A stretch of 32,000 bases of DNA from Opitutales bacterium (lineage in GTDB: Bacteria > Verrucomicrobiota > Verrucomicrobiia > Opitutales > Coraliomargaritaceae): contig JBMYVL010000002.1 of NCBI GenBank assembly GCA_049606355.1, forward strand, positions 210,001 through 242,000. The letters run 5' to 3'. The translations under genes were made by a program, and so were the position numbers. The notes below the pieces were generated by a model that did not search any database, was not told the DNA's origin, and was given only the letters and a program-made list of their open reading frames with translations. Shown in pieces: positions 1,482-25,376 of the stretch; within the stretch, counting starts at the first letter, position 1, and each line of letters starts with the position of its first letter.

Positions 1482-1502
1482 AGACGACTGGATTAGTCGT
1501 CT
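1482..1502. terminator. Hairpin between convergent genes; possible weak bidirectional terminator
   Basis: AGACGACT (1482..1489), a GGATT loop, then AGTCGTCT (1495..1502) give a perfect 8-bp stem. It lies 6 nt after the regulator stop (1474..1476) and overlaps the stop codon of the GH10 gene (1493..1495). The plus strand has a modest T-rich tail (AATTCAATTTTG); the minus strand has no T-tract. Confidence 0.3.
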
Positions 1503-4357
1503 AATTCAATTTTGTAAAATTGCCTAGGTGCGTCCTCATGGGCTTCGGACCAATAATTCAGCCCACCGAAAGAACCCGGCAAGGCTTCCTCCACCACAGA
1601 CCAATTCGCAGCACCCAAATCGGTCTTCGCGAGGACTCGATAGGATTCACTGTCACTCCCGTACCAACTAATGTTATTCGTCGTCGCAGTCCGGTAGAAT
1701 GTATGAAGACTGAACTTTGAGTAACTGTTCGTGGGAAGGGTACCTGCCCTAAACTCAATTAGGTTCGAGACTCCATCTTGGTCGCTATCGGCATTGGGTT
1801 CGGCATTAATCGAACCGAAGTAGCTCAGCTCCCAGGCGTCCAACATGCCGTCATGATCGCTATCCTCAGGATTTATCGGATCCGTCACTACTGCCAAGCT
1901 CACATCATCGACATAGAAATTCTCGGCTGCATCGACATTCGATATGTAGATGAACTCCATCAACGCATCATAAACAAACTCGCCACTCAACTCCACCCAC
2001 TGGCCGGCAGTCACACCATTAGGCTTAGTATCCAGAGTCGTGTACGACACGGGATCCGTCAGGCTTTTGATGGTTAAACTTGAGTTGTCGCTATTTTCAA
2101 CCAATCGAACCCAAGCAGAGAAACGGTAGCGCTCCCCCGGACTTAAAGACGCAGTCGCGTTCGCACCTGAAAGATAATAGCGTACCCCATTCCAATTCGC
2201 CGCCGAATTCGACAAGTCGCGTTGCACATAAAGTGAATAATTACCACTGCGCGCAGTACCGGTAGTTCTACTTAAGATTACCTGAGCCGAGGTAAACGGC
2301 GCAAAGGCATTATCCATGCCTAATTCGAAATCCGCGTTTGCAATTAAATTCGGCCCGAGGTTGTTGGTTATACCCACGTGGATTGTAACCGAGTCCTCAA
2401 TCAAACTGCTCGACTCCGCCTGTATCGAAAGCGTGTGGAACCCATCCGCCGCACCGTATAGTTTGGTACGAAAAGGAGCCACTGAGTCTCTTTTAAGCAA
2501 CTGCCCGTCGGCATAAAATTCGACATAGTTAATGCCCTGATTCGTCCCGTCCGGATAGGCCGCCTCGAGCTCAATGGTTTCATTCGGATAAAATTCGCTC
2601 CCATCAATTGGTCGGATTAAACCGATGCTACCAGATGTTTCAAATAATTCGTTGTTACTATACTCCAGATAAAACGTCTCTGCCCCGCTATCCGTAGCTA
2701 TCGTTTGATCAAACACATTGCCGTCGATGATGATATCATAATCACCTGCAAAGGCACTCAATTCAACATTACCGTTCGCATCCGTTTCAACCACTGCATC
2801 CGTCCACCACTCATCAAAAACCAAACCACGATAGCGCGCTACTTGCTCGGTCTCGATCCAATTACTCGGCACATCGTCAGTGGTGTTCGACGTATCGTAC
2901 TTATCGTAACCCTGGTACTGCCAAGGCGCACGATAGTCGCGCCAGTGGCACCCCGACCAAAAGCCCCACATGATAATACCTTCAACCGCTTGGTGTTCAA
3001 AGGCTGCTCTAAAGACGTTTTCCAGCTGGTTCGCCTTGGCCGTTTCAGAACTGCCAATGGCGCCAATATCAAGCTCGGTGATCTTAATGGGCACACCGAC
3101 ATCATCTAAGATATTCAAACAATTGGTGATATGTGCTTTCGAGCGGGCCGTATTACCAAAGTGGCCTTGTACACCAATACCATCGACCGGCACATCGTGA
3201 TTGTCTCTCAAATCAATGAGCAGGTTTTTAAAGCTCGTTGCATTGCCAGTACCGGATTGCGTGATGATATTGTAATCGTTATGGTATAACTTCAGATTTG
3301 GATTCGCCGCTTTGGCGACTTCGGCGAATTCAGCCAAGATCGAAGGCCCAGAGGGACTGTGCGAGCCAGTTTTGAAATTCGTCTGACCATCGTACATCTT
3401 ACGATAATGGTCATAATTCCAGAGCTCATTGTTAAAGTCCCACTCATCGATCTTACCTGCATAATAGGAAACCACCTGCTCAATGCGATTTTTGATGGCA
3501 ACTTTGGCTTGTTCTTTCTCTGCCTCGCTTCCCTCCATTAAATCTTCAATCCATTGAGGATCATGCATATTTTCCTCAGCTAAGTTGGTCGACGACTTTT
3601 TGCCCCAAAGGAGGGTATGGCCACGCACTGGAATATTATTTGAGTCGTGCCAATTATACCAGCGGTCGGCACGGGTGAAGCTTATTCCAGCGGTGCCCAT
3701 TGAGTACCATTTCATCGCATTACCCGCTACGGAATAATTAAAGTTATCGAGGAAGACTTCGCGATATTTATTGATATATGCAAGCTGTGTACTGTTGGCA
3801 CCATTGCCGCTGATTCGTACCGGGTATGGCTTTGTGTCGGTCGGATTCAGACTCCCCTCCTCCACTGTTTGTGAACCAAAAATAAAAGCATGGCGCCTCA
3901 TGCGAATCGTAATTTCCTGGTTCGCCTGGCCTGTCTTTAAAAAAACTTTGCGTGCACGGTGACTAAGGGGATCCGTAAAGGTAATCTCAGTCGAGTCATT
4001 CAGGATTAAGTTACTGGACGCATCATAGCCCATAACTCGAACTTCGTAAGTACCTGGATTGGGTAACCACGCTTCGTTGTTACGGTACAGATAAAAAGGA
4101 CTACCCAATGCATCCGTGGAGATCTCCGCATCGTTGATCGAAAAGCTCAATGAAGCCACCTGGGCATCACTAGACGTGTACTTGATATTAAACGCTCGTT
4201 TACCAATGGTGTTTAAGTTGATCGAGGCCTGCGAGCCACTCAAACCGTTTACTAAGGCAGCAGTGGAACTGTCAATTAAGTCAAAATCAGCGCTTAAGTT
4301 GGAGAATGCCAGAAGCTGCAGGCTAACAAACGCTAGAAAGTACTTAAAATTATTCAT
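1493..4357 (-). CDS. Secreted multidomain GH10 endo-xylanase: signal peptide, N-terminal beta-sandwich, GH10 catalytic domain, beta-sandwich, Ig-like domain, CBM4/9-like domain, thrombospondin-type-3-like Ca-binding repeats, C-terminal domain
   Basis: 954 aa. The signal peptide is MNNFKYFLAFVSLQLLAFSNLSA. GH10 landmarks appear in order: HAFIFGS, FNYSVAGNAMKW, GHTLLWG, EWDFNNE (acid/base Glu311), DGIGVQGHF, IKITELDI (nucleophile Glu428) and IIMWGFW. The tail contains NLIANADFELG (CBM4/9-like start), DSDHDGMLDAWELSYFGS and DSDQDGVSN (TSP3-like), and ends ...ISWYGSDSESYRVLAKTDL..NW...QFYKIELDD. Confidence 0.9.
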   Translation of the reverse strand: MNNFKYFLAFVSLQLLAFSNLSADFDLIDSSTAALVNGLSGSQASINLNTIGKRAFNIKYTSSDAQVASLSFSINDAEISTDALGSPFYLYRNNEAWLPNPGTYEVRVMGYDASSNLILNDSTEITFTDPLSHRARKVFLKTGQANQEITIRMRRHAFIFGSQTVEEGSLNPTDTKPYPVRISGNGANSTQLAYINKYREVFLDNFNYSVAGNAMKWYSMGTAGISFTRADRWYNWHDSNNIPVRGHTLLWGKKSSTNLAEENMHDPQWIEDLMEGSEAEKEQAKVAIKNRIEQVVSYYAGKIDEWDFNNELWNYDHYRKMYDGQTNFKTGSHSPSGPSILAEFAEVAKAANPNLKLYHNDYNIITQSGTGNATSFKNLLIDLRDNHDVPVDGIGVQGHFGNTARSKAHITNCLNILDDVGVPIKITELDIGAIGSSETAKANQLENVFRAAFEHQAVEGIIMWGFWSGCHWRDYRAPWQYQGYDKYDTSNTTDDVPSNWIETEQVARYRGLVFDEWWTDAVVETDANGNVELSAFAGDYDIIIDGNVFDQTIATDSGAETFYLEYSNNELFETSGSIGLIRPIDGSEFYPNETIELEAAYPDGTNQGINYVEFYADGQLLKRDSVAPFRTKLYGAADGFHTLSIQAESSSLIEDSVTIHVGITNNLGPNLIANADFELGMDNAFAPFTSAQVILSRTTGTARSGNYSLYVQRDLSNSAANWNGVRYYLSGANATASLSPGERYRFSAWVRLVENSDNSSLTIKSLTDPVSYTTLDTKPNGVTAGQWVELSGEFVYDALMEFIYISNVDAAENFYVDDVSLAVVTDPINPEDSDHDGMLDAWELSYFGSINAEPNADSDQDGVSNLIEFRAGTLPTNSYSKFSLHTFYRTATTNNISWYGSDSESYRVLAKTDLGAANWSVVEEALPGSFGGLNYWSEAHEDAPRQFYKIELDD

Positions 4358-5817: not shown

Positions 5818-7986
5818 TTAACAAACATGAACTAACTTTGATTCAGGTTTTTCCAAACTTACACGCTGCATGCGTGCTGCCTCCAACCATAAGATATTCG
5901 TTACGATTCGGGGATAAAACAAACTACCAATGGGTTTTCCTGACGCAAATTGGTCGGAACAGGCGTGGGCTTTAGAACCATTGATTTGCCATTCCACATG
6001 CGCTCGGTCGGCCTTTTCCTCTCCTTGATAGCTCATTTCTAAAATCTCGTGAATGACAAATTGATTCAGGCAAATCTTACTCATCCACGAGTTATCCGCA
6101 CTGCTGGACAATTTCCATGCACCATCTGCGTAAAGGCACATCCCCGACTGGAGTATATGGGTGCTATGCTTTTTCAAAACACCGAGGTAGCCCGCAAAGG
6201 GACCGTCGCATGCCAAGTGCTCCTGCAAGCCCATCTGGTGCGGATAAATCAGCGCTTCAACCGCAGGAATAATTGCACTACGGTTATCATTTTCCAATAC
6301 CGCAGGGATAAAACCTAAATCCTCATCATACGCTTTTTCCAGTGCGGCCGCAGTGAGCAAGGCCGCATCCATTGCCGACTGTGCCAAGTCAGCGTTACCG
6401 AGCATTTTAAATAAGGCCTCTAAAGCCAGATAAGACGCCCACGTTTTGCCGGCTAGATACACGTTGTTCCGTGCCTGACCCAGCGAATGATCCAATGAAT
6501 CGTAGGTAGTGATCTCACCACCGCCCTCAGTCCTGCTACTGTCAAAGCCCATGAGCCCATTACGCAAGGCTGGATCCGGGTGATCTCGATTCAACAAACT
6601 GGTGAGGCAACGCTCGAAAAGTGCCGCGTGAGCTTCCAAAAAGTCATGATCCTGTGCATGCTTGACATAGAGCCCGGCGGTGAGAATCCAGTTGGTCAAC
6701 TCCTCATAGGTCATGTAGGAAAAGCACTTGCGGTCTATTCCCGCACACTCATAGCACGAATACTGGTCCGGGCTAAAGTGGTTGCCCACACCCATATCGT
6801 GAGTAAAGGAGACGCCTCCGATGAAGTGCTGCGATGGCTCCTCTGGTGCGAAAATGTGGTCCTCATAGGAGTAATTTGAAACAAAATGTTCCAAAACATT
6901 GCGAACCGTCCACGGATTCAGCCGAAGCTCAAAGAAGGCCATATCAATGGTCAGATCAAGCGTGTTGATCATCAAGTACTCACCCTCGTTTACAACCCAC
7001 AGTGGCTTACCATCTTCTACGAGCCACTGCGTCGAGCCGTAATAGCTGCGTGTCGCATGAGCGATTAAAAATTTCTGGTCTTCACTCAGCGAAGCAGCGG
7101 CGAGCTCAGCATCCTTCTGATCCGCGATGGCCACAAAGTCATCATAATGATCCAGCGCGTAGTCAAAAACCGATTCGATCGAAGTAAAATACTGCGTATA
7201 CCAGTAGGCTGCAGTTCGGTTATACGATACCGAACCTTGCATGAAATAGCCGACGACAAAGCGCACCGTCTTCGTCTCGCCTGGTTCAACCACGAAAGAA
7301 AACCCACCGATCGGTCCTAATAGAAAATTGGGCGTTTTATGAACCTTACTCAGTGCTTGATTGACATCGAAATCGACAAATTCGGCAACCGACGTGTCAC
7401 GCGTAGCGAAGCCCATCTGATCGCAGGTGATCATGCCCTTTAGGCTTTTACTGCGATGCGAGAGTGGCGTCCACGGGCGACTCCCCCCCACTGCGAAAAA
7501 ACCATCCCAAAGCTCTTCACTGTCATTCGCAATCGTGAGCTCTAGATAAGTTGCAGGGCAGGAAGCACGCTGTAAGGCATCACGATCCGCGGTCGACGGA
7601 TCCGGAATAGCACCAAAAGGGGTACGAATCGACATCTCCACACCAGGAGCCGAAAAAACATCGCTTGCCCACGCATAACTCCTATCGATATGCGATTCAT
7701 CAAACACAACTGCTCCAGGCGCTGATCGGGATGCAGGATCATCTTGACTGAAGCGTTCCGCATCGTTGGTTAAACTTTCAAAAAAAGGGAACAGTGCCGT
7801 ACGCCCGGAATGGGTTCGATAGCCAACAAACACCGATTGATTTGCCGGAGTCCCCATTTCCAAACCCATGCCACCATTGGCACCAAACATGCCCAGCGTA
7901 AAAGATGCATGAGCACCCATCGGTGAATGGTGTGCATGGAAAGAATCAGATGATCTTATATGATGATTCGAGTTCGAATTTTCCAT
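5818..7986 (-). CDS. GH52 beta-xylosidase, no signal peptide (cytoplasmic)
   Basis: Long blocks match my recollection of Geobacillus XynB2-type GH52 enzymes: HAHHSPMGAHASFTLGMFG, HATRSYYGSTQWLVEDGKPLWVVNEGEYLMINTLDLTIDMAFFELRLNPWTVRNVLE..YSYED, RDHPDPALRNGLMGFDSSRTEGGGEITTYDSLDHSLGQARNNVYLAGK and YPRIVTNILWLE. The track start at 8019 is a GTG inside the loop of the terminator hairpin, so I call the ATG at 7986 (MENSNSNHH...). Confidence 0.92.
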   Translation of the reverse strand: MENSNSNHHIRSSDSFHAHHSPMGAHASFTLGMFGANGGMGLEMGTPANQSVFVGYRTHSGRTALFPFFESLTNDAERFSQDDPASRSAPGAVVFDESHIDRSYAWASDVFSAPGVEMSIRTPFGAIPDPSTADRDALQRASCPATYLELTIANDSEELWDGFFAVGGSRPWTPLSHRSKSLKGMITCDQMGFATRDTSVAEFVDFDVNQALSKVHKTPNFLLGPIGGFSFVVEPGETKTVRFVVGYFMQGSVSYNRTAAYWYTQYFTSIESVFDYALDHYDDFVAIADQKDAELAAASLSEDQKFLIAHATRSYYGSTQWLVEDGKPLWVVNEGEYLMINTLDLTIDMAFFELRLNPWTVRNVLEHFVSNYSYEDHIFAPEEPSQHFIGGVSFTHDMGVGNHFSPDQYSCYECAGIDRKCFSYMTYEELTNWILTAGLYVKHAQDHDFLEAHAALFERCLTSLLNRDHPDPALRNGLMGFDSSRTEGGGEITTYDSLDHSLGQARNNVYLAGKTWASYLALEALFKMLGNADLAQSAMDAALLTAAALEKAYDEDLGFIPAVLENDNRSAIIPAVEALIYPHQMGLQEHLACDGPFAGYLGVLKKHSTHILQSGMCLYADGAWKLSSSADNSWMSKICLNQFVIHEILEMSYQGEEKADRAHVEWQINGSKAHACSDQFASGKPIGSLFYPRIVTNILWLEAARMQRVSLEKPESKLVHVC

Positions 7987-8059: not shown

Positions 8060-11000
8060 CTACTCGTTAGTTAATTTGAAGAATTTCACTCCATCAATTG
8101 ATTCCGAATGCGGGCTGGTGTTGCCGCTCGCATTCGACCAATTCGTAAGGTCGCTGGAGGACTGAAGGTTAAATCCTTCGCCACCATCCCAAGTTACAGT
8201 CACCGTCGCACCATCCGAAATGATCGTAAGAGCCGGAGCCTCCGTGGGCGTTTGAGGATTAGGATTGTTCGGATCGTTATCGTCAGGATCCGCGTTCGCA
8301 CCGACACCGTCTTCATCTGCATCCACTGACTCATTTGGATCACTCGGGAACGCATCTTCATAGTCAAAGGCGCCGTCGTCATCCGAATCAGCAGGCATCT
8401 GCGGAGTTGGCTCATTGCTTGAATCTGCATCCCGAATGTGAATGGAATCAATCTTGACGAAATCCCCAGCACTGCCACCCGCGATGCTGCTATCACCCCA
8501 GGCGTCATTGGCGTCACGCTTCGTACCAATCTGGATACCGTGAATGGTCGTGAAGCCCGATCCGTACTGAATTAGATTATTCCAGACACCACTCCCCTGT
8601 TTGAAGCGCGAGTAGAAGGCACCGGAGTCAAGATCGACTACAACTTGTAAAGTCGTACCGCTTGTATCCGCCATGCCGCTTAAGGCAACGGTCACCGTAT
8701 CTTCCATTTTGACAACACCGTCAGAACCATACCAAGGCTGAGCTTGGATTTGGGATCCGCCGTTACCGTCAGTATACAGCTGGATCACCGTACCCTGTCT
8801 GGGTTCCGTTGGGGTGTTGTTGGGGCTACCACCGCCAGGGCCGTTCTTGATGATCATGCGAATACCCTTTTGTGCCGCAGAGTCGGAACTCGAATCCCAT
8901 GACTTACTCAAGTCATAAGAATCGAGGACCATCTCATAAACCACCACCCCTGAAGTGATCTCATTATCACTACCTAGATTGTTGGTTCTGAATACAGCAG
9001 CGTTGCCACCATCGACACCTGTCCATTTCCAGTTTTCAGAATAGCCAATATTAAGGTTGCCATTGCTGGTCTGCGGCCCCCCAGAAGTAAACGCAGTTGC
9101 CGGGTAGCCAAGATTCAAGGCCTCGTTTAAGCTGGTCCCACTTTCGTCATCAAAGTCATAGCGTAAGTAGTAGCCCTCGAAGACCCCACCACTATTAGGT
9201 TCATCATCCACATGATCGGGGATCCCATCGTTGTCGCTGTCAGGGTAATCGACTGCGCTGTCGGTGTAAAGGCTGACCAGCCCACCCGTCTCAGTACTAT
9301 CAACGAGACCAAACTGTATGCCTTTGCCGGATGCACTGTTGACGTTGTACGTAGCCGCAGCATCCCAAGCGCGAGACAAGTCGTACTCCTTAATCTCAAT
9401 AACTAAGGAAACCTGCCCGGATGTAATTGCGTTATCCAAGGTAAACTTCCTAAAGACTGACGCTAAGTGCCCATAATTGGCGTTCGTCCATTTATAGTAC
9501 TTTGTATAACCAATGTTCAGTGCACCGTTTTGCATTTGCGGCCCACCATTCGACCAAGCACCGGTAGCGGAGCCGCTGTTCGTTGCGTTTTTAAGGTTCG
9601 TACCCGCAGCATCGTCAAATTCAAAGGCGACTAAGTCCGTACCTGCAACGCTGTCAGTCAATTGAACCGATTCGATCTGAATATAGTCACCGGTCTCCCC
9701 ACCCGCGATCTCAGCAGTACCCCAGGCATCGTCGTCGCCCGTTTTAACCGCTAGGTTGATGGTTTTAACTTCCGTAAGACCGCTGCCGTCCGTGGTGAGG
9801 TTCACCCAGGTGGCGCCGGAATCCGTCGAATAACTGGTTTCAAAGGCGCCCGTGTCTAGATTAGCATCGAGCTTCAATCTGAGATTTTCACCCGACTGCG
9901 CAAAATTTCCGGTACTAACTGGCACTGCGGTCGCGCTCACCCCAGCCCCCGAGCCGTACTTCTGACCAGTAATCACCATGTCGTAATTAGTATCAGGTCC
10001 AGTATCGGCAAGGATACGGATGTGATCAATTTTAACATAGTCGCCCTCAGGAGTGGCTTCATTGACCTCAGTTGTCGAGGCATCGTCAGGTACACCCCAA
10101 GTGGCGAGACCCGTCCCGGCGGTATTGTTAGGCGTCTTCGCATTGATCTGAAGACTCTTGATATCGGTAAAGCCAGTACCGCCCAGTTCCATGTTCTTCC
10201 ATTCAGAACTCGCTGCAGACTTCGCGCGAGTCGACCATTGGCCGGTCGTTGCGTTTACTAGAATCTGCAGGTCGATGTTGCCATTAGCAGGCAAGCCGAA
10301 GGCTTGCTTCAGGGTGGAGCCATTGACTGCCTCGGCACTTACAGAGGAAGCGGAACCTGCCCAAGCATTGCTTTGCGCCTTCACTTGATAGCCACCAGTA
10401 CTGCCGCTAATATGCGAGTAGAGGTTGAGAATTGCACCGGAGCCATCCTCCTTCATTGCCAGGATTTGTACCCCCTTGTTGGCGACCAGATCGGCAGGAT
10501 CATTCCAAGAATTATCTAAAAGAGCAGAGTCAATTCGCGTCTCAATAATGTAACGACCCGAAGTTATCGCCTCATCGAGAGTATACGTGCGGCGTGCATT
10601 ACCATCGTTACTCTCACCATAAAGATCAGTCCATTGGTTGCCGGAGGTGAACCCTATATTTAAGGACCCATCCCCGCTGGTTCTCGGACCGCCAAAGTTC
10701 CACGAACCGGCGACTCCGTAAGCTGCAGTCTCCTGCAGGGCAGTCCCCTCGGCATCATCGAAGTCGAGTTGCAGAATTGCATCCGCTACCGCTTTATTGT
10801 GACTGAACAAATTAAGGGCTGCACCGGCACTATTCGAATTTAGCAGGGTAAACTGGACACCTTTGCCGCTATAACTACCGCTCGAGCCTGCATCCCAAGT
10901 CTTACTCAAATCGTAGTCAGCAACGACTACTTCAAATACGACTAAGTCTGCTCCGCCAGCATCCGTTATCGCACTGTCCAAGAAAAAGCCGCGGTGTGAG

Positions 11001-12415
11001 TTACCAAAATTGTTCACCCATTTGTTGTTTTCCGTATAACCGATGTTGAGATTTCCGCTGCCATCGGTCTTGTGCCCTGAGTAGTTGAAACTGCCGCTCG
11101 CCGACCCTGAATTGACGACCTCAGTCTCACCCTCGCCAGCAACGAGTTGCGCACCACCGACTGTATCATTGAATTCAAAAGCAACCAATGGATTGCTGTA
11201 ATTGACAGTGAAATCATTCACCCCAGAACCCGCACTGCCGGTAACAATTTTAATTGAATCAACTTTGACATAGTCACTTGCAACCCCATCGCTGGCATCC
11301 GAACCCCAGGACTCACCCTCCGGCGTCTTGGTGTTGATTGAAAAACGCTTTACGTCAGTCATGCCAGTACCATCGCTGACCAACGCGACCCAATTGCCTG
11401 CGCCGACTTTGTAGCGCGAGGACCAATTGCCCGTACTCAAGTCTGCAGCCACCTGCAGGGTGACGGCATCACTGCCAAGCTGATCGGTGTCACCACTGAG
11501 GCTTTCGACAAGAGTGCCGCTCACGGCCGGATCCGCATTGCCACCCCAATTGTTGCCCTGCACAGCAATGTCAGTTAAGACAGCGGGGGCAACAACTTCC
11601 GGAGCAGTTAAGCTAATAGCACCCACACGCACGAAATCTCCAGCGACACCGCCAGATAAAGTCGAATCACCCCATGGGTCATTGGGACGGTGGTTAATTT
11701 TCAATTGGATTTCAGAAATCTCATCCAGCCCAGAACCATCTTGAGTTAACAAAATCCAAGACACTGCATCGGCTTCCTTGAAACGTGCCGTCCAGACGCC
11801 CGTATCCAGATTAGCGTTAATTTGCAAAACGAGTGCAGCATCCGTATCAAAATTAAAATACTCTGCGGTAGTTGGGTCCGCTGCACCATAGGTCGTTGCA
11901 ATCGTAGCATCCGGTGCACCGGCACCCCAATCATTACTCTGCACCTTGGAAACAATATCACCGATCAAAAAGTGGCTGAATAGATTGATCGTAGCACCAA
12001 TTCCATCGGAGCCCTTGATAATAAAATTAACACCCTTGTCGCTGTCGGTTGAAGAAGCCGAGCTATCCCAAGCTCGAGTTAGATCATACGAGTCAATCTC
12101 GACCTCAAAGGTATACTCTCCCGAGGTCAGCGGCGTATCCAGAACATACGAACGATAGACTTCGCTTAAATCATGCGAGTTGGTAAATTTATAATACGGG
12201 GTATAGCCAATGTTCAAGACTCCCGCCTGTACTTGCGGACCACCATAATTCCAGGCTCCGCTTGCAGTGCCATCATTAACCGCAACGTTGAGGTTGGTGC
12301 CATTGGCATCATCGAAAGCAAAATTCACGCCTGCGTGAACGGCGAGAACCTGTAACATTAAGAATAAGGGTATAAGGGTATTTTTCATTCTACTAAGTTG
12401 GGTGACGAGAGTCAT
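8060..12415 (-). CDS. Giant secreted repeat protein of unknown function: five A modules plus five B modules, TSP3-like acidic repeats and a C-terminal domain. Candidate surface glycan-binding protein.
   Basis: 1451 aa, with an alternative ATG at 12388 giving the canonical signal peptide MKNTLIPLFLMLQVLAVHA. It contains no catalytic motif that I recognise. Internal repeats are obvious in the translation (listed in the repeat feature). The acidic DxDxDG stretches are DSDNDGIPDHVDDEP and DSDDDGAFDYEDAFPSDPNESVDADEDGVGANADPDDNDPNNPN. The C-terminus is TVTWDGGEGFNLQSSSDLTNW...KFFKLTNE. Confidence 0.85.
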   Translation of the reverse strand: MTLVTQLSRMKNTLIPLFLMLQVLAVHAGVNFAFDDANGTNLNVAVNDGTASGAWNYGGPQVQAGVLNIGYTPYYKFTNSHDLSEVYRSYVLDTPLTSGEYTFEVEIDSYDLTRAWDSSASSTDSDKGVNFIIKGSDGIGATINLFSHFLIGDIVSKVQSNDWGAGAPDATIATTYGAADPTTAEYFNFDTDAALVLQINANLDTGVWTARFKEADAVSWILLTQDGSGLDEISEIQLKINHRPNDPWGDSTLSGGVAGDFVRVGAISLTAPEVVAPAVLTDIAVQGNNWGGNADPAVSGTLVESLSGDTDQLGSDAVTLQVAADLSTGNWSSRYKVGAGNWVALVSDGTGMTDVKRFSINTKTPEGESWGSDASDGVASDYVKVDSIKIVTGSAGSGVNDFTVNYSNPLVAFEFNDTVGGAQLVAGEGETEVVNSGSASGSFNYSGHKTDGSGNLNIGYTENNKWVNNFGNSHRGFFLDSAITDAGGADLVVFEVVVADYDLSKTWDAGSSGSYSGKGVQFTLLNSNSAGAALNLFSHNKAVADAILQLDFDDAEGTALQETAAYGVAGSWNFGGPRTSGDGSLNIGFTSGNQWTDLYGESNDGNARRTYTLDEAITSGRYIIETRIDSALLDNSWNDPADLVANKGVQILAMKEDGSGAILNLYSHISGSTGGYQVKAQSNAWAGSASSVSAEAVNGSTLKQAFGLPANGNIDLQILVNATTGQWSTRAKSAASSEWKNMELGGTGFTDIKSLQINAKTPNNTAGTGLATWGVPDDASTTEVNEATPEGDYVKIDHIRILADTGPDTNYDMVITGQKYGSGAGVSATAVPVSTGNFAQSGENLRLKLDANLDTGAFETSYSTDSGATWVNLTTDGSGLTEVKTINLAVKTGDDDAWGTAEIAGGETGDYIQIESVQLTDSVAGTDLVAFEFDDAAGTNLKNATNSGSATGAWSNGGPQMQNGALNIGYTKYYKWTNANYGHLASVFRKFTLDNAITSGQVSLVIEIKEYDLSRAWDAAATYNVNSASGKGIQFGLVDSTETGGLVSLYTDSAVDYPDSDNDGIPDHVDDEPNSGGVFEGYYLRYDFDDESGTSLNEALNLGYPATAFTSGGPQTSNGNLNIGYSENWKWTGVDGGNAAVFRTNNLGSDNEITSGVVVYEMVLDSYDLSKSWDSSSDSAAQKGIRMIIKNGPGGGSPNNTPTEPRQGTVIQLYTDGNGGSQIQAQPWYGSDGVVKMEDTVTVALSGMADTSGTTLQVVVDLDSGAFYSRFKQGSGVWNNLIQYGSGFTTIHGIQIGTKRDANDAWGDSSIAGGSAGDFVKIDSIHIRDADSSNEPTPQMPADSDDDGAFDYEDAFPSDPNESVDADEDGVGANADPDDNDPNNPNPQTPTEAPALTIISDGATVTVTWDGGEGFNLQSSSDLTNWSNASGNTSPHSESIDGVKFFKLTNE
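8435..12328 (-). repeat. Protein-level module array inside the giant gene, in the order A1-B1-B2-A2-A3-B3-B4-A4-A5-B5
   Basis: The A modules are about 120-130 aa. Their consensus is (L)xFxFDDxxGTxL...G.W..GGP....G.LNIGYT...KW......(I)TSG.....(E)I..YDLS+.WD.....KG(V/I)Q... They lie at 11972..12328, 10802..11191, 10412..10777, 9263..9634 and 8771..9169. The B modules are about 105-125 aa. Their consensus is (V)Q.N.WG....L(Q/K)(I/V)...L.TG.W..R(F/Y)K.....W..L...G(S/T)G(L/F)T(D/E)(I/V)K.(I/F).(I/L)N.K......WG......G...GD(Y/F)(V/I)+(I/V)(D/E)S(I/V).(I/L). They lie at 11609..11950, 11246..11569, 10013..10390, 9659..9979 and 8435..8755. Boundaries are approximate and were set by eye. The copies are diverged at DNA level. 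Confidence 0.7.
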
Positions 12416-12531: not shown

Positions 12532-14037
12532 CTAAAACTGAGTCGCTCCACTAATCGAATGAGGGTCGATTTTGAAAGCCGCCAACCGGCCGACTTTGTC
12601 ACCTGGTATACTGTAGTTAAACTGCGGTGCATTTTCATCTAGTTCATGTCGCCAGACCTTAAAAAATGGAGGCGTCGACGTTTCCGTAAGAAAATCATTC
12701 TGACGCCCCATCCATGCAAAGAGCTCACGCTTCAGCCGCTCCTTGATCCCACGCTTGTCGGGATCTTTGGCCAGATTGACCAGCTCAAAGGGATCCACCG
12801 CGACATCATACAACTCTTCTTCGGGCTGATTTGGGTGTTTATCGGCTCCCTGCTTTAAAAAAAAGTAGACCAAAGCATCCTCTACCCGAAGCTTCGCCAA
12901 ATGTTCGTTTGAATTAAAGTTATAAATATAGTGATAACGACCATCATGAATGGAACGCTGCGGAAAAACATGGCGATTCTGAATCCCCTGATTGTGGCTT
13001 ACCGCATAAGCATATTGGTGGTGCTGCTTCGCGCGGCCTTCAAGTACCGGCAACAAGCTTTTGCCATCAAAGGCGTGGTCACCCACTCGGTAACTGGAGC
13101 TGGCCAAATCGATTGCCGTGGGCACGAAGTCCGCAAAGGTAATGATTGCATCGCTACGGCCTGGTATAATTTTGTCCGGCCAGCGCACCATATAAGCCAC
13201 ATTGAGCCCGGAATCATACACTGTAAACTTGCCACGTGCGACCCCATGGTCGTCGGCGTAAAAAACGATCGTATCGTTTTCTAAGCCGTGTTTTTCGAGG
13301 AGGCGCAAGACGGCCTCAAACTCATTTTCTTTTTCGGCAATACTTTGATAATAGCGGCTGACATAAGCGCGGGTTCCCGGAGAGTCCTGCTGGAAGGGCG
13401 CAAGAGCCACTGAATCTGGCTCGAAACTCGAATCCTTAAAGTAAGGGCCGTGCGGGTACTCACTGGCGAGGATCAAACAAAAGGGGTTTTCGCGACTGCC
13501 TAAATAGCGATCCAGCGCAGCAATGGGTAACCCGGGGCGCGGGTAGCCTGGCTTCCGAACCGGTTGGTACCAGTTCGTCCAAGGAAATTGATGGTTTGGC
13601 TTGAGATGGGATTTACCGGCTAGAATGACATCGTAGCCCAACGGTTTCAGGTACGCAGGCAGCGTCTTCACGCTAGGGCGTATCGCGGTATGATTGATAA
13701 AGCAGCCATTTCGAATCGGGTATAAGCCCGTCAACAGCATCGAGCGACTCGGCGCGCAGATTGCCTGCCCCGTGTAGGCTTTATTAAAAACGAGCGCTTG
13801 CCTGCTGAACGCTTCCGTAATCGGTGTTGGCGCCTTTAGGTTGCCGTAAATACGATGATCCGAGCGGCTTTGGTCATCTGCTAAAAAAAAGATGATGTTC
13901 GGACGACTGCCTTGTAAGCCAGTAAACTTTTCTTCCGAATGAACGGCGCATATGAAAGCAGTCTGCGCAGCAAGGAAGAGCAAGAGTACCCATGTATTTC
14001 GCAGACTCATGAACCCGGCAGTCCATTGCTCACTCAT
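12532..14037 (-). CDS. Secreted Cys-type (formylglycine) sulfatase
   Basis: 501 aa. It has PNIIFFLADDQ (metal-binding DD) and the sulfatase signature ICAPSRSMLLTGLYP, with the FGly Cys codon at 13756..13758. The ATG at 14037 overlaps the upstream stop (ATGAGTGA). The alternative ATG at 14010 gives a cleaner signal peptide (MSLRNTWVLLLFLAAQTAFICAVHS). Confidence 0.9.
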   Translation of the reverse strand: MSEQWTAGFMSLRNTWVLLLFLAAQTAFICAVHSEEKFTGLQGSRPNIIFFLADDQSRSDHRIYGNLKAPTPITEAFSRQALVFNKAYTGQAICAPSRSMLLTGLYPIRNGCFINHTAIRPSVKTLPAYLKPLGYDVILAGKSHLKPNHQFPWTNWYQPVRKPGYPRPGLPIAALDRYLGSRENPFCLILASEYPHGPYFKDSSFEPDSVALAPFQQDSPGTRAYVSRYYQSIAEKENEFEAVLRLLEKHGLENDTIVFYADDHGVARGKFTVYDSGLNVAYMVRWPDKIIPGRSDAIITFADFVPTAIDLASSSYRVGDHAFDGKSLLPVLEGRAKQHHQYAYAVSHNQGIQNRHVFPQRSIHDGRYHYIYNFNSNEHLAKLRVEDALVYFFLKQGADKHPNQPEEELYDVAVDPFELVNLAKDPDKRGIKERLKRELFAWMGRQNDFLTETSTPPFFKVWRHELDENAPQFNYSIPGDKVGRLAAFKIDPHSISGATQF

Positions 14038-16822
14038 CGATTTGTACCTTATAAAATTTGTTCGGTATTCCCTGATGAGTCTCAGTCCAATAATTCAAGC
14101 CGCCAAAGGTACCCGGTAAGGCCTCGACTTCGACCTGCCAATCACTTTGCGCCAGGTCCGTCTTACTGAGCACACGGTAGTGCACGGAATCACTACCAAA
14201 CCAGCTGATTTCATTGCTCGTCTCTCCTGCAGAGAGACTATTAAATGCGAATCGTGAATTGGCGTTGGTGGGTATCGTACCCGAGCGGTATTCAAGCCGA
14301 TTGGAAAGACCATCCATATCGCTATCCACATCCGGACTCGTTTGATTACTTCCAAAGTAAGCGACTTCCCAACTATCGGGAATCCCATCTTGATCGGTAT
14401 CGGACGGATTGACACCGGGCGTTTCTGCCACGAGCGAAAAGTCGTCCACGTAGATATCTACTCCCGCAGGAACACCTCCAATGTAGATCGACTCATCGCC
14501 CTCTGTGGCTACAAAGGTACCTGACAACTCCACCCAATCATTGATATAAGTGGCTTGGGCAACCGTGCTATAAGTCGTGCCCGATGCGGTATTCTTACGA
14601 GTCAATTTGGCCAGTACGTTGCTTTGACTGAGCCGGAGGCGACAAGCGATTTGGTAACTGTTGCCGAGCGTTAAATCATCCAGCAAATACCGAATTCCGC
14701 TGTAGTTTTGCGTGCGATTGCTAATCAATAAGGATTGGGAGCCAGCGTAGGCATAACTATTCGTGATCGAACGATCCGCCGGCCCCATGTAGTTAAAAGG
14801 CGCCAATTGCGATTCATTACTAATCGATCCAATGGTTGAGTTCTCAAAACCAGGGTTTGTAATTAAATTGGTACCTGTTCCGCTTGCGCCGACCGTAAAC
14901 GCAAGCGCTGCATTTAAGGCAGCTCCATCGTTCTGCTCGCCGACAGCGGATAAGGTGTAGTCGCCCTCAGGTCGGTCATATAGCTTTGCGGTATAGGGAG
15001 CTACCGCGTCCGTTTTAATTAAAACGTTATCCACATAAAACGAAATACGACTCAAGTCCGCACTCGCATTACCTTGCGCTTCAACTTCGATCGGTTCGTT
15101 TGGATAAAACGCTTCCCCACTGGTTGGCTTTAGGAAGCTAATCGCCGGGGTATCGGGCGGAGGTTCTTCCAGACCCACAGCAATCCGGTAGTAGCTCTGC
15201 ATCGTGGCCAATGTATCGGCATAAGCGGATGCACCGACCACATTCGACCACTCGTTCGGGTCGGTGCTGTGGTCGTACAATTCTTCTTCTCCATCACGGT
15301 AAAGGATGTAACGGAATTGTTCGCTGCGGATACTGAAGTGCTGATCCGTGTAGGGAGCGACTTGGTTTTGGGATACTGAAGCCGATGAACCAATACCTGC
15401 AACCGAGTAGCTCGGCCCATCCCATTGCCCGTTCTGCGGGTCGGCCAAATACGCACGCATCGAATAGCCATCTAAAGTATGCGGTGCGTTCAGCCCCGCG
15501 TAATCGATACAAGTAGGATAGATATCAACTAAAGAAACCGGCTTGTTGCACTCTTGGTTCGCCGCAACCCCAGGGCCGGCAATAACTAAGGGTACTCGGA
15601 CACTTTCCTCCCAAGGACTTTGTTTAAAGATATAAGACTTTTCTCCCAAATGGTAGCCGTGGTCACTGGTGAAGATAAGGATCGTGTTGTCGCGAATAGT
15701 GGGATCGTTACTATTATCAATCGCATCCATCACCTTACCCACCTGAGCATCTACAAAAGCGACGCAAGCCAAGTACGCTTGGGTGAATTCTTTTAAAGCA
15801 CGCTCGGCATCGCCATACTCCGCTATACCCATATTTTTGTATTGAGTATACTTCCACCAACCCGAATTCTGTGCCAGGTCTTTATCGGTACTGTTAACCG
15901 GCCCGGTAATATCATTGTAGTCACTGGCATTAATTGGCGCTAATTGAATCTCATTCAATGCCGGCACGAGATCAAAAAACTCTTTCGGCGCATAATAGGG
16001 TGAGTGCGGACGAACAAATCCTACCGTTAATAAAAAGGGCTTATTCTTATCGTAACCGTTGATGAAATTGACCGCTTGCTGTGCGCTGATTTCATCTGAA
16101 GTCAAATCCCGCGTGTCATCCGAAAAATCATTCGGTGTGCCGTTATCATCATAGTTCCAAGTGGTATAGGATGCATTGTTCGACCCGCCCGACTGCAACG
16201 TCCATTGATGCCCATAACTACTCAAATCCCGATAGTAGCCAAAGCCGCTATAAGGGGGCGTCACGTTATCCTTATAACCATCTCCCCACCAGGAAGGGTC
16301 GACGCCCTGAAATTGAGGGGTGCTGGTATTTGGATACGGACCAAAATTACCCTTAGTACCATAGCCCGAAGAGCCATCGGTATTACGCATAATCGTTGAG
16401 TAGGAACTCTCATGGCCATTGTGATGGATCTTACCCGTGGCATAACTATAGTAGCCCTGATCAATGAAGGTTTCAAAAAGTGTTTTTTTGTTTCGTAATA
16501 CTACATTGTTGTCCCAGCGATTGGTTTGCTGATCTTGACCATACATGCCCGAAGTAACCGGATGGATGCCGCTCCATAAACTCGCACGAGAAGGTCCACA
16601 AATTGGCGCGTTGGAGGCCGCATTGGTAAAACGAACCCCTGACTCCATCAATCGAGTAATATTTGGCGTGTAAGCCTGAGGGTGGCCGCCGATGCCTTCG
16701 ATGGTATCGTTGAGATCATCACAAACGATCACCACAATATTCGGCGACTGCGCCTGCAACGACGAGAAACCGAACAAAGTAGAGACCACAGCGAGCAAAT
16801 AGAGAATGGGGTAATTCTTCAT
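14030..16822 (-). CDS. Secreted Cys-type sulfatase fused to Ig-like domain, CBM4/9-like domain, TSP3-like repeats and C-terminal domain
   Basis: 930 aa. The signal peptide is MKNYPILYLLAVVSTLFGFSSLQA. Sulfatase motifs are VVIVCDDLND, ICGPSRASLWSGIHP (Cys75, 16598..16600) and IFTSDHGYHLGEK. The tail (aa ~560-930, nt 14033..15145) is colinear with the tail of the GH10 at 1493..4357: FYPNEPIEVEA..., NLITNPGFENS, DTDQDGIPDSWEVAYFGS, DSDMDGLSN, ISWFGSDSVHYRVLSKTDL..DW...KFYKVQIDE. Confidence 0.9.
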   Translation of the reverse strand: MKNYPILYLLAVVSTLFGFSSLQAQSPNIVVIVCDDLNDTIEGIGGHPQAYTPNITRLMESGVRFTNAASNAPICGPSRASLWSGIHPVTSGMYGQDQQTNRWDNNVVLRNKKTLFETFIDQGYYSYATGKIHHNGHESSYSTIMRNTDGSSGYGTKGNFGPYPNTSTPQFQGVDPSWWGDGYKDNVTPPYSGFGYYRDLSSYGHQWTLQSGGSNNASYTTWNYDDNGTPNDFSDDTRDLTSDEISAQQAVNFINGYDKNKPFLLTVGFVRPHSPYYAPKEFFDLVPALNEIQLAPINASDYNDITGPVNSTDKDLAQNSGWWKYTQYKNMGIAEYGDAERALKEFTQAYLACVAFVDAQVGKVMDAIDNSNDPTIRDNTILIFTSDHGYHLGEKSYIFKQSPWEESVRVPLVIAGPGVAANQECNKPVSLVDIYPTCIDYAGLNAPHTLDGYSMRAYLADPQNGQWDGPSYSVAGIGSSASVSQNQVAPYTDQHFSIRSEQFRYILYRDGEEELYDHSTDPNEWSNVVGASAYADTLATMQSYYRIAVGLEEPPPDTPAISFLKPTSGEAFYPNEPIEVEAQGNASADLSRISFYVDNVLIKTDAVAPYTAKLYDRPEGDYTLSAVGEQNDGAALNAALAFTVGASGTGTNLITNPGFENSTIGSISNESQLAPFNYMGPADRSITNSYAYAGSQSLLISNRTQNYSGIRYLLDDLTLGNSYQIACRLRLSQSNVLAKLTRKNTASGTTYSTVAQATYINDWVELSGTFVATEGDESIYIGGVPAGVDIYVDDFSLVAETPGVNPSDTDQDGIPDSWEVAYFGSNQTSPDVDSDMDGLSNRLEYRSGTIPTNANSRFAFNSLSAGETSNEISWFGSDSVHYRVLSKTDLAQSDWQVEVEALPGTFGGLNYWTETHQGIPNKFYKVQIDE

Positions 16823-24281: not shown

Positions 24282-24594
24282 AAGCTAGGGGATAAACGTC
24301 AAAAGCGAAAAATGAACCGCACTGTCCTGCAGCAAAGTGTAAAAGCAAAAAACTAACAGTCCTGTAGCGTAACAGCTTTGCAGCGCACTATAAAGAGGTA
24401 CTAATGACAATTATATGTTGAAAAATGAAACTCCACATTCTTCCATAAAACCCTCAATCATTTAAGGACTCGTCACCACAGATGCTGCACGCTGTGTTAA
24501 CGCGCAGCACTCAACCCCACCGAGCAGGCACAGCGCTACAGGATTGACCGCCCCGTGTGGACTCGTTTTAACCCCTATTAGAACTTTATGACTT
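24282..24594. promoter_or_regulatory. Divergent intergenic region expected to hold the promoter and operator of the sulfatase/xylanase cluster
   Basis: This is the only spacer over 120 bp upstream of the eleven-gene minus-strand cluster. It contains a direct repeat, GTCCTG(C/T)AGC, at 24324..24333 and 24359..24368. I could not identify convincing -35/-10 hexamers. Confidence 0.35.
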
Positions 24595-24960
24595 ATGGAC
24601 CTTCTCGCCCCAGTCTTGCAACTCGTCCTCGGTCTTGGCATCTTAAATGTGTGGCTGCTACGCCGCAACCAGCCGACCGCTTATCGTGGCGGTGGCGCGC
24701 CCTCATTGATTGAAGAGTTTCGCGCCTATGGCCTGCCTGAAAGCGTATTTTATTTAGTGGGAGCACTTAAACTCATCGCTGCTGCCCTGCTACTTCTTGG
24801 TCTTTCACTGCCGGCATTGGTCCGCCCGGGCGCCCTCCTTCTGGCCGGATTAATGGCTGCTGCGCTAGCGATGCACCTTAAAATTAGAGACCCGCTGAGC
24901 AAATCACTACCGGCAGCCAGCCTGCTCGTGTTGTGCATCGTATTGTTGGCCCTTCGCTAA
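24595..24960 (+). CDS. DoxX-like small integral membrane protein
   Basis: 121 aa with about four hydrophobic helices. It shares the pattern EF(R/A)xYG(L/I)P....GAL(K/Q)L(I/L)AA..LL.G with the convergent neighbour. Confidence 0.7.
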
Positions 24961-25298
24961 GCACTCGCCAGCTGAAGCGCGAGCAGCGCACACAGTACGA
25001 GGTAGAGCGCGGCAGGAGCACACTGCAGCCAATCATCGCCGATTCGTCGGCGCACGATACATCCACAGGCCATCTGCAGGGACAAGCCTGCCGCCGCGAC
25101 CGCCCCAACCTGCGGATAGGCATAGCCAACCAGTAAGCCCACGGCAGCCAGCAACTGCAGGGCTCCGGTGAGCACCCGAAATTGCGGAATGCCGTAGCGC
25201 GCAAACTCCGCAGTCATCTGCGCACTACGCACGCAGCGAACGCCGTAGACGCAGAAGGAAAGGAAACAAAAGGACTGAAGCCAGTGAAGTGCGCTCAT
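24957..25298 (-). CDS. DoxX-like small integral membrane protein; paralogue of 24595..24960
   Basis: This is ORF 24957..25352. The ATG at 25298 ([13 protein letters not shown]...) gives a length and topology similar to the neighbour; the ATG at 25352 is an alternative. The motif is [29 protein letters not shown]. Confidence 0.6.
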
Positions 25299-25376
25299 GG
25301 TGTAAAGTGCCAGACGATGCCATAGGCATATGCGCGCTTGCTTGCAGCGCAAGTCTGAGCCCGCTTTTAGGACTGC

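Follow-up and report, generated by a model that had tools for sequence, protein, structure and literature searches.

Predicted alternation of native and circularly permuted L-type-lectin-like domains in a protein from a candidate sulfated-xylan locus of Opitutales

The stretch of DNA analysed here (hereafter the window: 32,000 nucleotides of an Opitutales bacterium, contig JBMYVL010000002.1) carries on its minus strand, at positions 8060-12415, an open reading frame (ORF) listed as 1451 amino acids (aa), whose product, the target protein, contains ten repeated segments of two types, A and B. In this study, we propose that A and B together make up one jelly roll of ~250 aa resembling the L-type lectins, A being its N-terminal and B its C-terminal half, a reading in which the predicted models give us high confidence. 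With the same high confidence, which covers the structural reading, we propose that five such lectin-like domains follow one another along the chain in the order native, permuted, native, permuted, native. The original prediction for this DNA had described "two unrecognised module types"; in the models A-B and B-A each form one compact body, and the odd order of the segments is read instead as alternating circular permutation. As a whole, the explanation that combines the alternation of native and permuted lectin-like domains with multivalent binding of sulfated xylan appears to us reasonably probable.

The features of the target protein are the following:

8060..12415, minus strand: whole ORF, 1451 aa listed, probable start M10 at 12388
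12332..12388, minus strand: probable Sec signal peptide, residues 10-28 (read from sequence)
11600..12331, minus strand: Domain 1, native A1-B1, residues 29-272 (AF2, Foldseek)
10793..11569, minus strand: Domain 2, circularly permuted B2-linker-A2, residues 283-541 (AF2, Foldseek, re-permutation against the hidden Markov model, HMM)
10004..10780, minus strand: Domain 3, native A3-B3, residues 546-804 (HMM copies, profile match, trees)
9254..9979, minus strand: Domain 4, circularly permuted B4-A4, residues 813-1054 (two-piece profile match)
9173..9253, minus strand: acidic linker with TSP3-like motif DSDNDGIPDHVD, residues 1055-1081 (pattern level)
8426..9172, minus strand: Domain 5, native A5-B5, residues 1082-1330 (HMM copies, profile match)
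8240..8425, minus strand: long acidic linker, residues 1331-1392, net charge -20 (TSP3-like motifs at 1343 and 1365)
8063..8239, minus strand: small C-terminal domain, residues 1393-1451 (no curated family)

Repeats, fold and circular permutation

A comparison of the whole protein with itself by BLAST returned the identity match only and no internal repeats, and a comparison by fragments was therefore needed. Fragments of 120 aa gave dozens of internal matches (E 1e-7 to 1e-33), placing the A copies at residues ~30-150, 411-540, 548-668, 929-1052 and 1084-1216, and the B copies at ~158-270, 285-391, 678-802, 821-920 and 1223-1327. HMMs for the two segment types recovered the order A-B-B-A-A-B-B-A-A-B both in the query and in a set of 22 homologs (P0001-P0022, 35-100% identity to the target), the exception being P0012, which lacks the first A only. 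From these sequences the repeats are genuine, well outside what chance would give, and conserved. The five A and five B copies and their order thus stand as originally predicted, and the motifs then given for A (FxFDD..GT, GGP..G.LNIGYT, TSG, YDLS.WD) and for B (L.TG.W..R.K, G[ST]G, GD[YF]V.[IV]DS[IV]) are present in the alignments.

Two relatives have a plain (A-B)n architecture, ABABABAB in P0023 and AB..AB..AB in P0024, which suggested that A plus B might be one domain and B-A its circular permutant. AlphaFold (AF2) models were calculated for the isolated units, A1B1 (residues 25-275) and B2A2 (residues 280-544), from shallow alignments of 28 natural A-B units and 21 natural B-A units, respectively. 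Both are single compact all-beta bodies, with a predicted local distance difference test (pLDDT) score of 87.9 and a predicted template-modelling (pTM) score of 0.88 for A1B1, and of 87.6 and 0.89 for B2A2. When searched against the PDB with Foldseek, the whole A1B1 unit was aligned over 236-289 columns to non-permuted L-type lectins, the top matches being FRIL, the Pterocarpus lectin (PAL), soybean agglutinin (SBA), the Erythrina lectin (ECorL), ERGIC-53 and VIP36 (E~1e-6, probability 1.00, TM-score 0.38-0.50). For B2A2, a match to mature concanavalin A (ConA) had been predicted beforehand, and the prediction held: all 50 of the top 50 matches were mature ConA-type lectins (Canavalia, Dioclea, Cratylia and related), and none was a non-permuted lectin (278-291 columns, E 3e-5 to 4e-4, TM-score 0.32-0.40). 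The TM-scores to lectins are modest, and the fold and topology are those of predicted models (TM 0.32-0.50). The modelling of A-B pairs followed by Foldseek had been put forward as a check together with the original prediction, and its outcome is a match to the lectin (ConA-like) fold. As a control, ConA itself was used as a query against PDB sequences; the lectins that top the A1B1 search match it in two swapped stretches, split mid-chain, and mature ConA is therefore "B-A" relative to the non-permuted lectins.

The same permutation is apparent at the level of profiles. B2A2 and B4A4 match the A-B profile in two pieces, hmm ~132-247 and then ~5-129, and when re-permuted in silico they give one full-length match of 208-210 bits, compared with 275-288 bits for native units. 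Domain 4 is matched at hmm 132-247 and then 6-127, and as a single 210-bit match once re-permuted, and Domain 5 gives a single full-length match of 275 bits. In the A1B1 model the break lies in the hairpin that joins strands 116-126 and 129-139, so that the permutation cuts the chain at the inter-half hairpin, the original termini being joined by a linker of 4-15 residues. The B-A order is encoded in the ORF and in all orthologous genes, and does not arise by post-translational permutation of a non-permuted precursor. The earlier suggestion that A opens like the first strand of a ConA/LamG-type lectin domain and that B ends like its last strand turns out to be right in a stronger sense than intended, because both strands belong to the same domain.

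The likeness to lectins does not extend to the sequences. Comparison by hhalign of the AB and BA profiles with ConA, in both orders, gave no signal (probability ≤0.1%), and the AB profile retrieved no lectin from PDB sequences with HMMER, its sole match being a chance Fab (E 0.7). What the AB unit has in common with lectins is thus its fold and its topology, not a demonstrated homology; given the hhalign null in both orders, homology to legume lectins was rejected and the claim on fold and topology retained.

An earlier parse, in which A and B are two distinct, independently folding modules of the carbohydrate-binding module (CBM) kind set in a mirror-like order, would agree with the facts that A and B show no mutual similarity, that each measures ~110-130 aa, a typical CBM size, and that only A-type matches are found in a few distant long relatives (P0111, P0122, P0148, P0158). 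In the models, on the contrary, AB and BA each form one body, and the full-length alignments to single-domain lectins show the permuted/non-permuted split exactly as predicted; moreover, stand-alone relatives always have one A plus one B, and the A-only and B-only matches are mostly short contig fragments. The two-module parse is thus largely refuted, and we regard it as highly improbable. Another pairing of the halves, A1 with B2 and B1 with A2, has also been considered; it would produce an ABBA super-domain that is domain-swapped or intertwined. Neighbouring domains must be in contact, since only 4-10 aa separate B1 from B2 and A2 from A3, and the models cover A1B1 and B2A2 as isolated units rather than ABBA or the full length; against such a swap, each of these isolated units folds confidently alone and stand-alone AB proteins exist, which leaves it only a slim chance. 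We therefore keep to five consecutive lectin-like domains, native and permuted in turn.

The A-B family and the history of the architecture

The whole target matches no family in Pfam at E≤1 and none in NCBIfam, and 28 individual A-B units likewise gave no match, to a lectin family or any other, in Pfam and NCBIfam at E≤10. The sequence models Lectin_legB, Lectin_leg-like and Bact_lectin are matched neither by the target nor by the AB units, and CBM4_9, which is matched by the neighbours at 1493-4357 and 14030-16822, is not matched by the target. Of the earlier view of the modules as an undescribed CBM-like family, the part concerning the sequences stands, since the family is absent from Pfam and NCBIfam, but the fold is already known. 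No description of the protein family, or of alternating permuted and native domains, was found in the literature searched, and absence there is not proof of novelty.

The family is rare. Searched exhaustively with HMMER, 1.84 billion representative proteins yielded only 136 that match the A-B profile at E≤1e-3, of which 84 do so at E≤1e-10, and a word-index homolog search with the AB alignment gave only 5 short matches. When 185,579 species-representative genomes were scanned with the ortholog alignment, orthologs appeared only in four uncultured metagenome-assembled genomes (assigned to Opitutia, Puniceicoccaceae, Coraliomargaritaceae and Verrucomicrobia); the same scan with the query sequence alone found no relatives. 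The commonest architecture among the relatives is a single A-B (53/134), and 33 full-length AB domains occur in proteins of <340 aa, most of which, at ~250-320 aa, combine one A-B with a signal peptide and a PEP-CTERM tail (...VPEPSTYALL...RRRK). In the long relatives B nearly always follows A.

Several relatives depart from these patterns. In P0085, a protein of 866 aa outside the ortholog group, residues 182-446 read B then A, which may be a second case of the permuted form, independent of the first. P0033 (381 aa, single AB) ends in repeated GDFNGDGTVNVLGDAFVLVGNLG segments instead of a PEP-CTERM tail; the repeats are dockerin- or EF-hand-like, hinting at another mode of attachment. The most distant relative, P0024 (2279 aa; locus L005, 1-16840), contains three A-B units far apart from one another, together with MBG_3 and YDG domains, and adjoins the gene of a protein of >3600 aa without a Pfam match; both look like giant surface proteins.

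ABBAABBAAB is retained in orthologs at 35-73% identity, and its history was approached with neighbour-joining trees of the halves from eight orthologs. The A2-A5 and B2-B5 classes are each monophyletic, while A1 and B1 are not; the monophyly of the copy classes means that the layout of ten halves is older than the split between these lineages. The branches between classes are short and inconsistent, with A2 and A4 closest on average and B1 grouping with B3. In the clade of the query A1 groups with A4, the two being 56% identical (residues 30-120 and 929-1021), whereas the A1 of more distant orthologs branches elsewhere. This affinity suggests that halves of differently permuted domains later underwent intragenic exchange or gene conversion. 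The duplicated ABBA super-unit proposed earlier fits the order of the halves and is the most economical reading of it, but in the trees of halves the mutual order of the classes is poorly resolved and in part contradictory, and they neither confirm nor reject it. Single AB, tandem (AB)n and BA forms coexist in the family, and these are the stages expected under permutation by duplication, a model described in PMC3320104.

Export, genomic setting and proposed function

M10 and K11 are invariant in an alignment of 10 orthologs, whose proteins begin there, and the real start is therefore probably M10, at window position 12388, giving a product of 1442 aa. The first 19 residues of this product (10-28, MKNTLIPLFLMLQVLAVHA) probably form a Sec signal peptide ending in VHA, with cleavage before G29; in the orthologs A1 begins at residue ~19-24. 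The signal peptide announced by the original prediction is in this way borne out, as a signal-peptide-like N-terminus after M10 judged by eye from the sequence. A database copy of the protein, P0001 (1432 aa), apparently takes M20 as its start, and its signal peptide would then be cut short. The target contains no Cys and has a net charge of about -116.

Two stretches between and after the domains are acidic. D-x-D-x-D-G-x-x-D-x-x-[DE] motifs occur at residues 1059 and 1343, and a shorter D-x-D-x-D-G at 1365, their Asp and Gly being invariant in 10 orthologs. At the level of pattern this supports Ca-binding-type, TSP3-like linkers, as had been proposed, and the Pfam TSP3_bac model gives no score on the target at E≤1. 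A small conserved domain (..TVTW.GG.GF.LQSSSDL..W...KFFKLTNE) makes up the final 59 residues; it matches no Pfam or NCBIfam model, and a homolog search with the alignment of the terminal domain gave only 10 short matches. The neighbouring GH10-CBM and sulfatase-CBM enzymes have a clearly homologous tail in common. The target had been said to end in the same C-terminal domain as these two enzymes, a claim that has to be reduced to a likeness of motifs, as no significant profile match was found between its tail and theirs (hhalign probability 3.4%); tails of other AB-family members bridge the two forms. Domain 3 is the most conserved domain among the orthologs and has an enlarged loop before its last strand. 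In the P0008-P0018 subgroup this last loop of B3 hosts a ~215-aa insertion that contains a copy of the small domain, and the C-terminus is an acidic tail.

A terminal motif of ~60 aa, ..[ST]W.G....[YF].[VL]..[ST].DL...W......F[FY][KR][LIV].., is seen in the target (window 8063-8239, minus strand), at the ends of the GH10-CBM and sulfatase-CBM ORFs (1493-4357 and 14030-16822, both minus strand) and in several distant AB-family proteins, always after an acidic TSP3-like linker; in P0010 it occurs at residues ~850-903. The domain that bears it may serve for sorting or anchoring, or may simply be an Ig-like spacer.

All genes at window 1493-24281 lie on the minus strand, in an order that agrees with the original placing of the target between a sulfatase block and a xylosidase/transporter block, the domain scan showing sulfatases on one side and GH52/MFS on the other (GH, glycoside hydrolase; MFS, major facilitator superfamily):

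1493-24281, minus strand, first part: GH10+Big_7+CBM4_9, MFS_2 transporter, GH52, target, then the sulfatase block
1493-24281, minus strand, remaining order after the target: sulfatase, sulfatase+Big_7+CBM4_9, sulfatase, GH10, sulfatase, GH10, sulfatase

The GH52 enzyme has no signal-peptide-like N-terminus and is therefore probably cytoplasmic, and neighbouring ORFs overlap by a few bases (5818-5824, 14030-14037), which suggests translational coupling. Nearby are a SASA-type esterase, two AraC/periplasmic-binding-type regulators, a glucuronate isomerase (UxaC) and an enzyme of the mannitol-dehydrogenase family. No ORF of at least 150 aa is present at window 24282-25376, the ~1.1 kb that separate the esterase gene from the last sulfatase. 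In all, window 1493-31272 contains three GH10, one GH52, one MFS_2 transporter, six sulfatases, and UxaC with the mannitol-dehydrogenase-family enzyme for uronate catabolism and, by its gene content, looks like one region for the utilisation of sulfated glucuronoxylan. GH10 together with sulfatases is a signature of predicted sulfated-xylan polysaccharide utilisation loci (PULs) in marine bacteria (PMC6794258). The window has 16 ORFs of 150 aa or more, and a scan of the target and the other 15 revealed neither a TonB-dependent receptor nor SusC or SusD.

The order sulfatase/GH10, target, GH52, MFS_2, GH10/CBM is also found in the loci of P0021 (36% identity) and P0010 (43%). The (AB)4 relative adjoins sulfatase-GH10-sulfatase, and two single-domain PEP-CTERM relatives adjoin sulfatases. 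In locus L011 (133-7286), a 1412-aa sulfatase+CBM4_9 lies between two AB-family proteins, one of 615 aa that reads A-B-A and also carries the small terminal domain, the other of 275 aa with a single AB and a PEP-CTERM tail, and in L012 a single-AB PEP-CTERM protein stands between sulfatases, an esterase and an EF-hand protein. The lectin topology, the export, the fixed operon position and the relatives that adjoin sulfatases together point to non-catalytic, multivalent glycan binding. In this regard, a multivalent surface glycan-capture role seems to us the most plausible functional reading, and it is strengthened by the conserved synteny and by the distant relatives beside sulfatases. To the more specific proposal, an exported, non-catalytic, multivalent glycan-binding protein directed at sulfated xylan, as the fold, export and locus would suggest, we give about an even chance.

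According to this proposal, the protein would be exported by the Sec route and would bind, without catalysis and in a multivalent manner, sulfated (glucurono)xylan, the substrate that would be degraded and imported by the GH10 xylanases, sulfatases, esterase, GH52 xylosidase and MFS transporter of the locus. Five weak sites per chain might provide avidity for the polymer and hold it near the exported enzymes. As a speculation, the A-B-B-A order would leave each half with one complementary neighbour, avoiding competition between the (AB)(AB) and A(BA)B registers. The charge of the protein is a caveat to this proposal: every domain is net acidic (-13 to -21), as is the whole protein, which makes recognition of sulfate by simple electrostatics unlikely, so that Ca2+-mediated or backbone recognition would be needed.

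The conserved residues bear on the possibility that the domains are catalytic, as a new GH or polysaccharide lyase (PL) family with a ConA-like fold (as GH11, GH16 or PL7) acting on sulfated xylan. The ConA-like jelly roll is known to host several GH and PL families, the operon is rich in enzymes, and D36 (83%), R88 (76%), E104 (74%) and D111 (79%) are moderately conserved. Across the 28 AB units, however, only Phe, four Gly and one Trp are invariant, and no D/E/H/K/R/Y is invariant across either the five copies or the 28 units, so that five catalytic copies are unlikely; the absence of a catalytic motif noted in the original prediction is consistent with this. The best-kept polar positions in 86 family domains (60-97%; Domain 1 numbering of the target) are D36, N47, W55, N68, R88, E104, D111, W208, W220, W248 and the last-strand Asp, with the best-kept acidic positions at only 74-90%. 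Furthermore, the top structural matches are lectins and not enzymes, five tandem catalytic copies would be unusual, and the single-domain relatives have surface-anchoring tails typical of non-enzymatic PEP-CTERM proteins. We thus consider a catalytic role unlikely. A GH16-like ExDxxE reading of "FEVEID" in A1 was rejected, as E106 and D108 are not conserved among the copies.

A more serious alternative is that of a general surface, matrix or adhesion protein, such as a PepA-like tether of the exopolysaccharide (EPS) made by the cell itself, a particle adhesin or a surface-layer component, which would merely be co-located with the xylan genes. In its favour, similarity to the EPS-retaining flocculation protein PepA, though sub-threshold, is seen among the single-domain PEP-CTERM relatives, and the target is very acidic with Ca-binding-type linkers, as are many matrix proteins. 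On the other hand, its position in the sulfatase/GH10/GH52/MFS block is strictly conserved at 36% and 43% identity, distant relatives also adjoin sulfatases, and no EPS-synthesis or exosortase genes are present among the scanned window ORFs. The conserved position and the sulfatase neighbours argue for a role in the degradation of sulfated glycans and against matrix building, which we judge improbable, if less so than catalysis. Glycan binding in the service of xylan degradation is accordingly the role that we compare below with known systems.

Known systems and meaning of the finding

The L-type lectins (legume lectins, ERGIC-53, VIP36; Pfam clan Concanavalin) are, like the AB unit, two-sheet jelly rolls of ~240 aa, with adjacent first and last strands, so that permutation is tolerated. 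The AB unit, in contrast, shows no detectable sequence similarity to them, with no residue-level alignment for the Ca/Mn and Asp-Gly-Asn sugar-site residues, and unlike the L-type lectins compared here the target is bacterial, carries five domains in tandem and is encoded inside a glycan-degradation locus. The B-A units resemble concanavalin A and the other Diocleinae lectins in having the ConA strand order, with a mid-chain break of the kind that separates ConA from favin, FRIL and SBA. ConA acquires its permutation only after translation, through cleavage and transpeptidation (PMC3320104). The permutation of the target, by contrast, is gene-encoded, and native and permuted versions alternate in one polypeptide.

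Circular permutation of a jelly roll at the level of the gene has precedents, since the Fibrobacter succinogenes GH16 lichenase is a gene-encoded circular permutant of an enzyme of ConA-like fold. Cases of the lichenase type lie between different proteins, whereas the target has both topologies in one chain and is apparently non-catalytic.

The nearest AB relatives share with the PEP-CTERM surface proteins a signal peptide, one AB and a PEP-CTERM tail, and one of them, P0070, matches the PepA model NF033554 over nearly its full length, below threshold (E 2e-9, 37.6 bits, cut-off 80). PepA is a PEP-CTERM flocculation protein that reportedly keeps exopolysaccharide bound to the cells (PMC9850573). 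Unlike these proteins, the target matches neither PEP-CTERM (TIGR02595/PF07589) nor NF033554 and ends in ...GVKFFKLTNE, and unlike PepA it has five domains and stands in a catabolic rather than an EPS locus. The SusE/SusF-like surface glycan-binding proteins of Bacteroidota PULs and tandem CBM arrays are likewise exported, built of several beta-sandwiches and encoded in polysaccharide-utilisation clusters, and a binding role is proposed for the target too; they differ from it in sequence and fold, and the target has no lipoprotein Cys, no SusC/SusD in its locus and a verrucomicrobial host, so that the analogy with SusD/E/F is functional only.

What is already known, then, is the L-type lectin/ConA-like fold, circular permutation, the PEP-CTERM surface proteins and the occurrence of non-catalytic binders in glycan loci. 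What is new is a rare, uncurated sequence family with this fold and a gene-encoded permutation at the ConA position, as well as the strict, conserved alternation of native and permuted domains in one chain, beside single and tandem native relatives. A further step, according to which the permutation was re-invented at the gene level, the alternation was selected against mis-registered folding, and the family represents a new sulfated-xylan-specific CBM family of marine Verrucomicrobiota, is one that we take only tentatively and consider rather doubtful.

All together, the family offers a compact natural system for testing permutation by duplication, and permutation as a guard against the misfolding of tandem repeats. 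From the point of view of annotation, ~1,250 residues of "hypothetical protein" become five putative L-type-lectin-like domains, and an A-B profile would also annotate the PEP-CTERM relatives. For marine glycobiology, the AB domain is a probable new non-catalytic binding module that recurs beside sulfatases. To our knowledge, the uncultured planktonic Opitutia/Coraliomargaritaceae do not have SusC/D systems, and the way in which they capture their substrates is poorly understood; the gene described here holds a fixed place in their putative sulfated-xylan loci.

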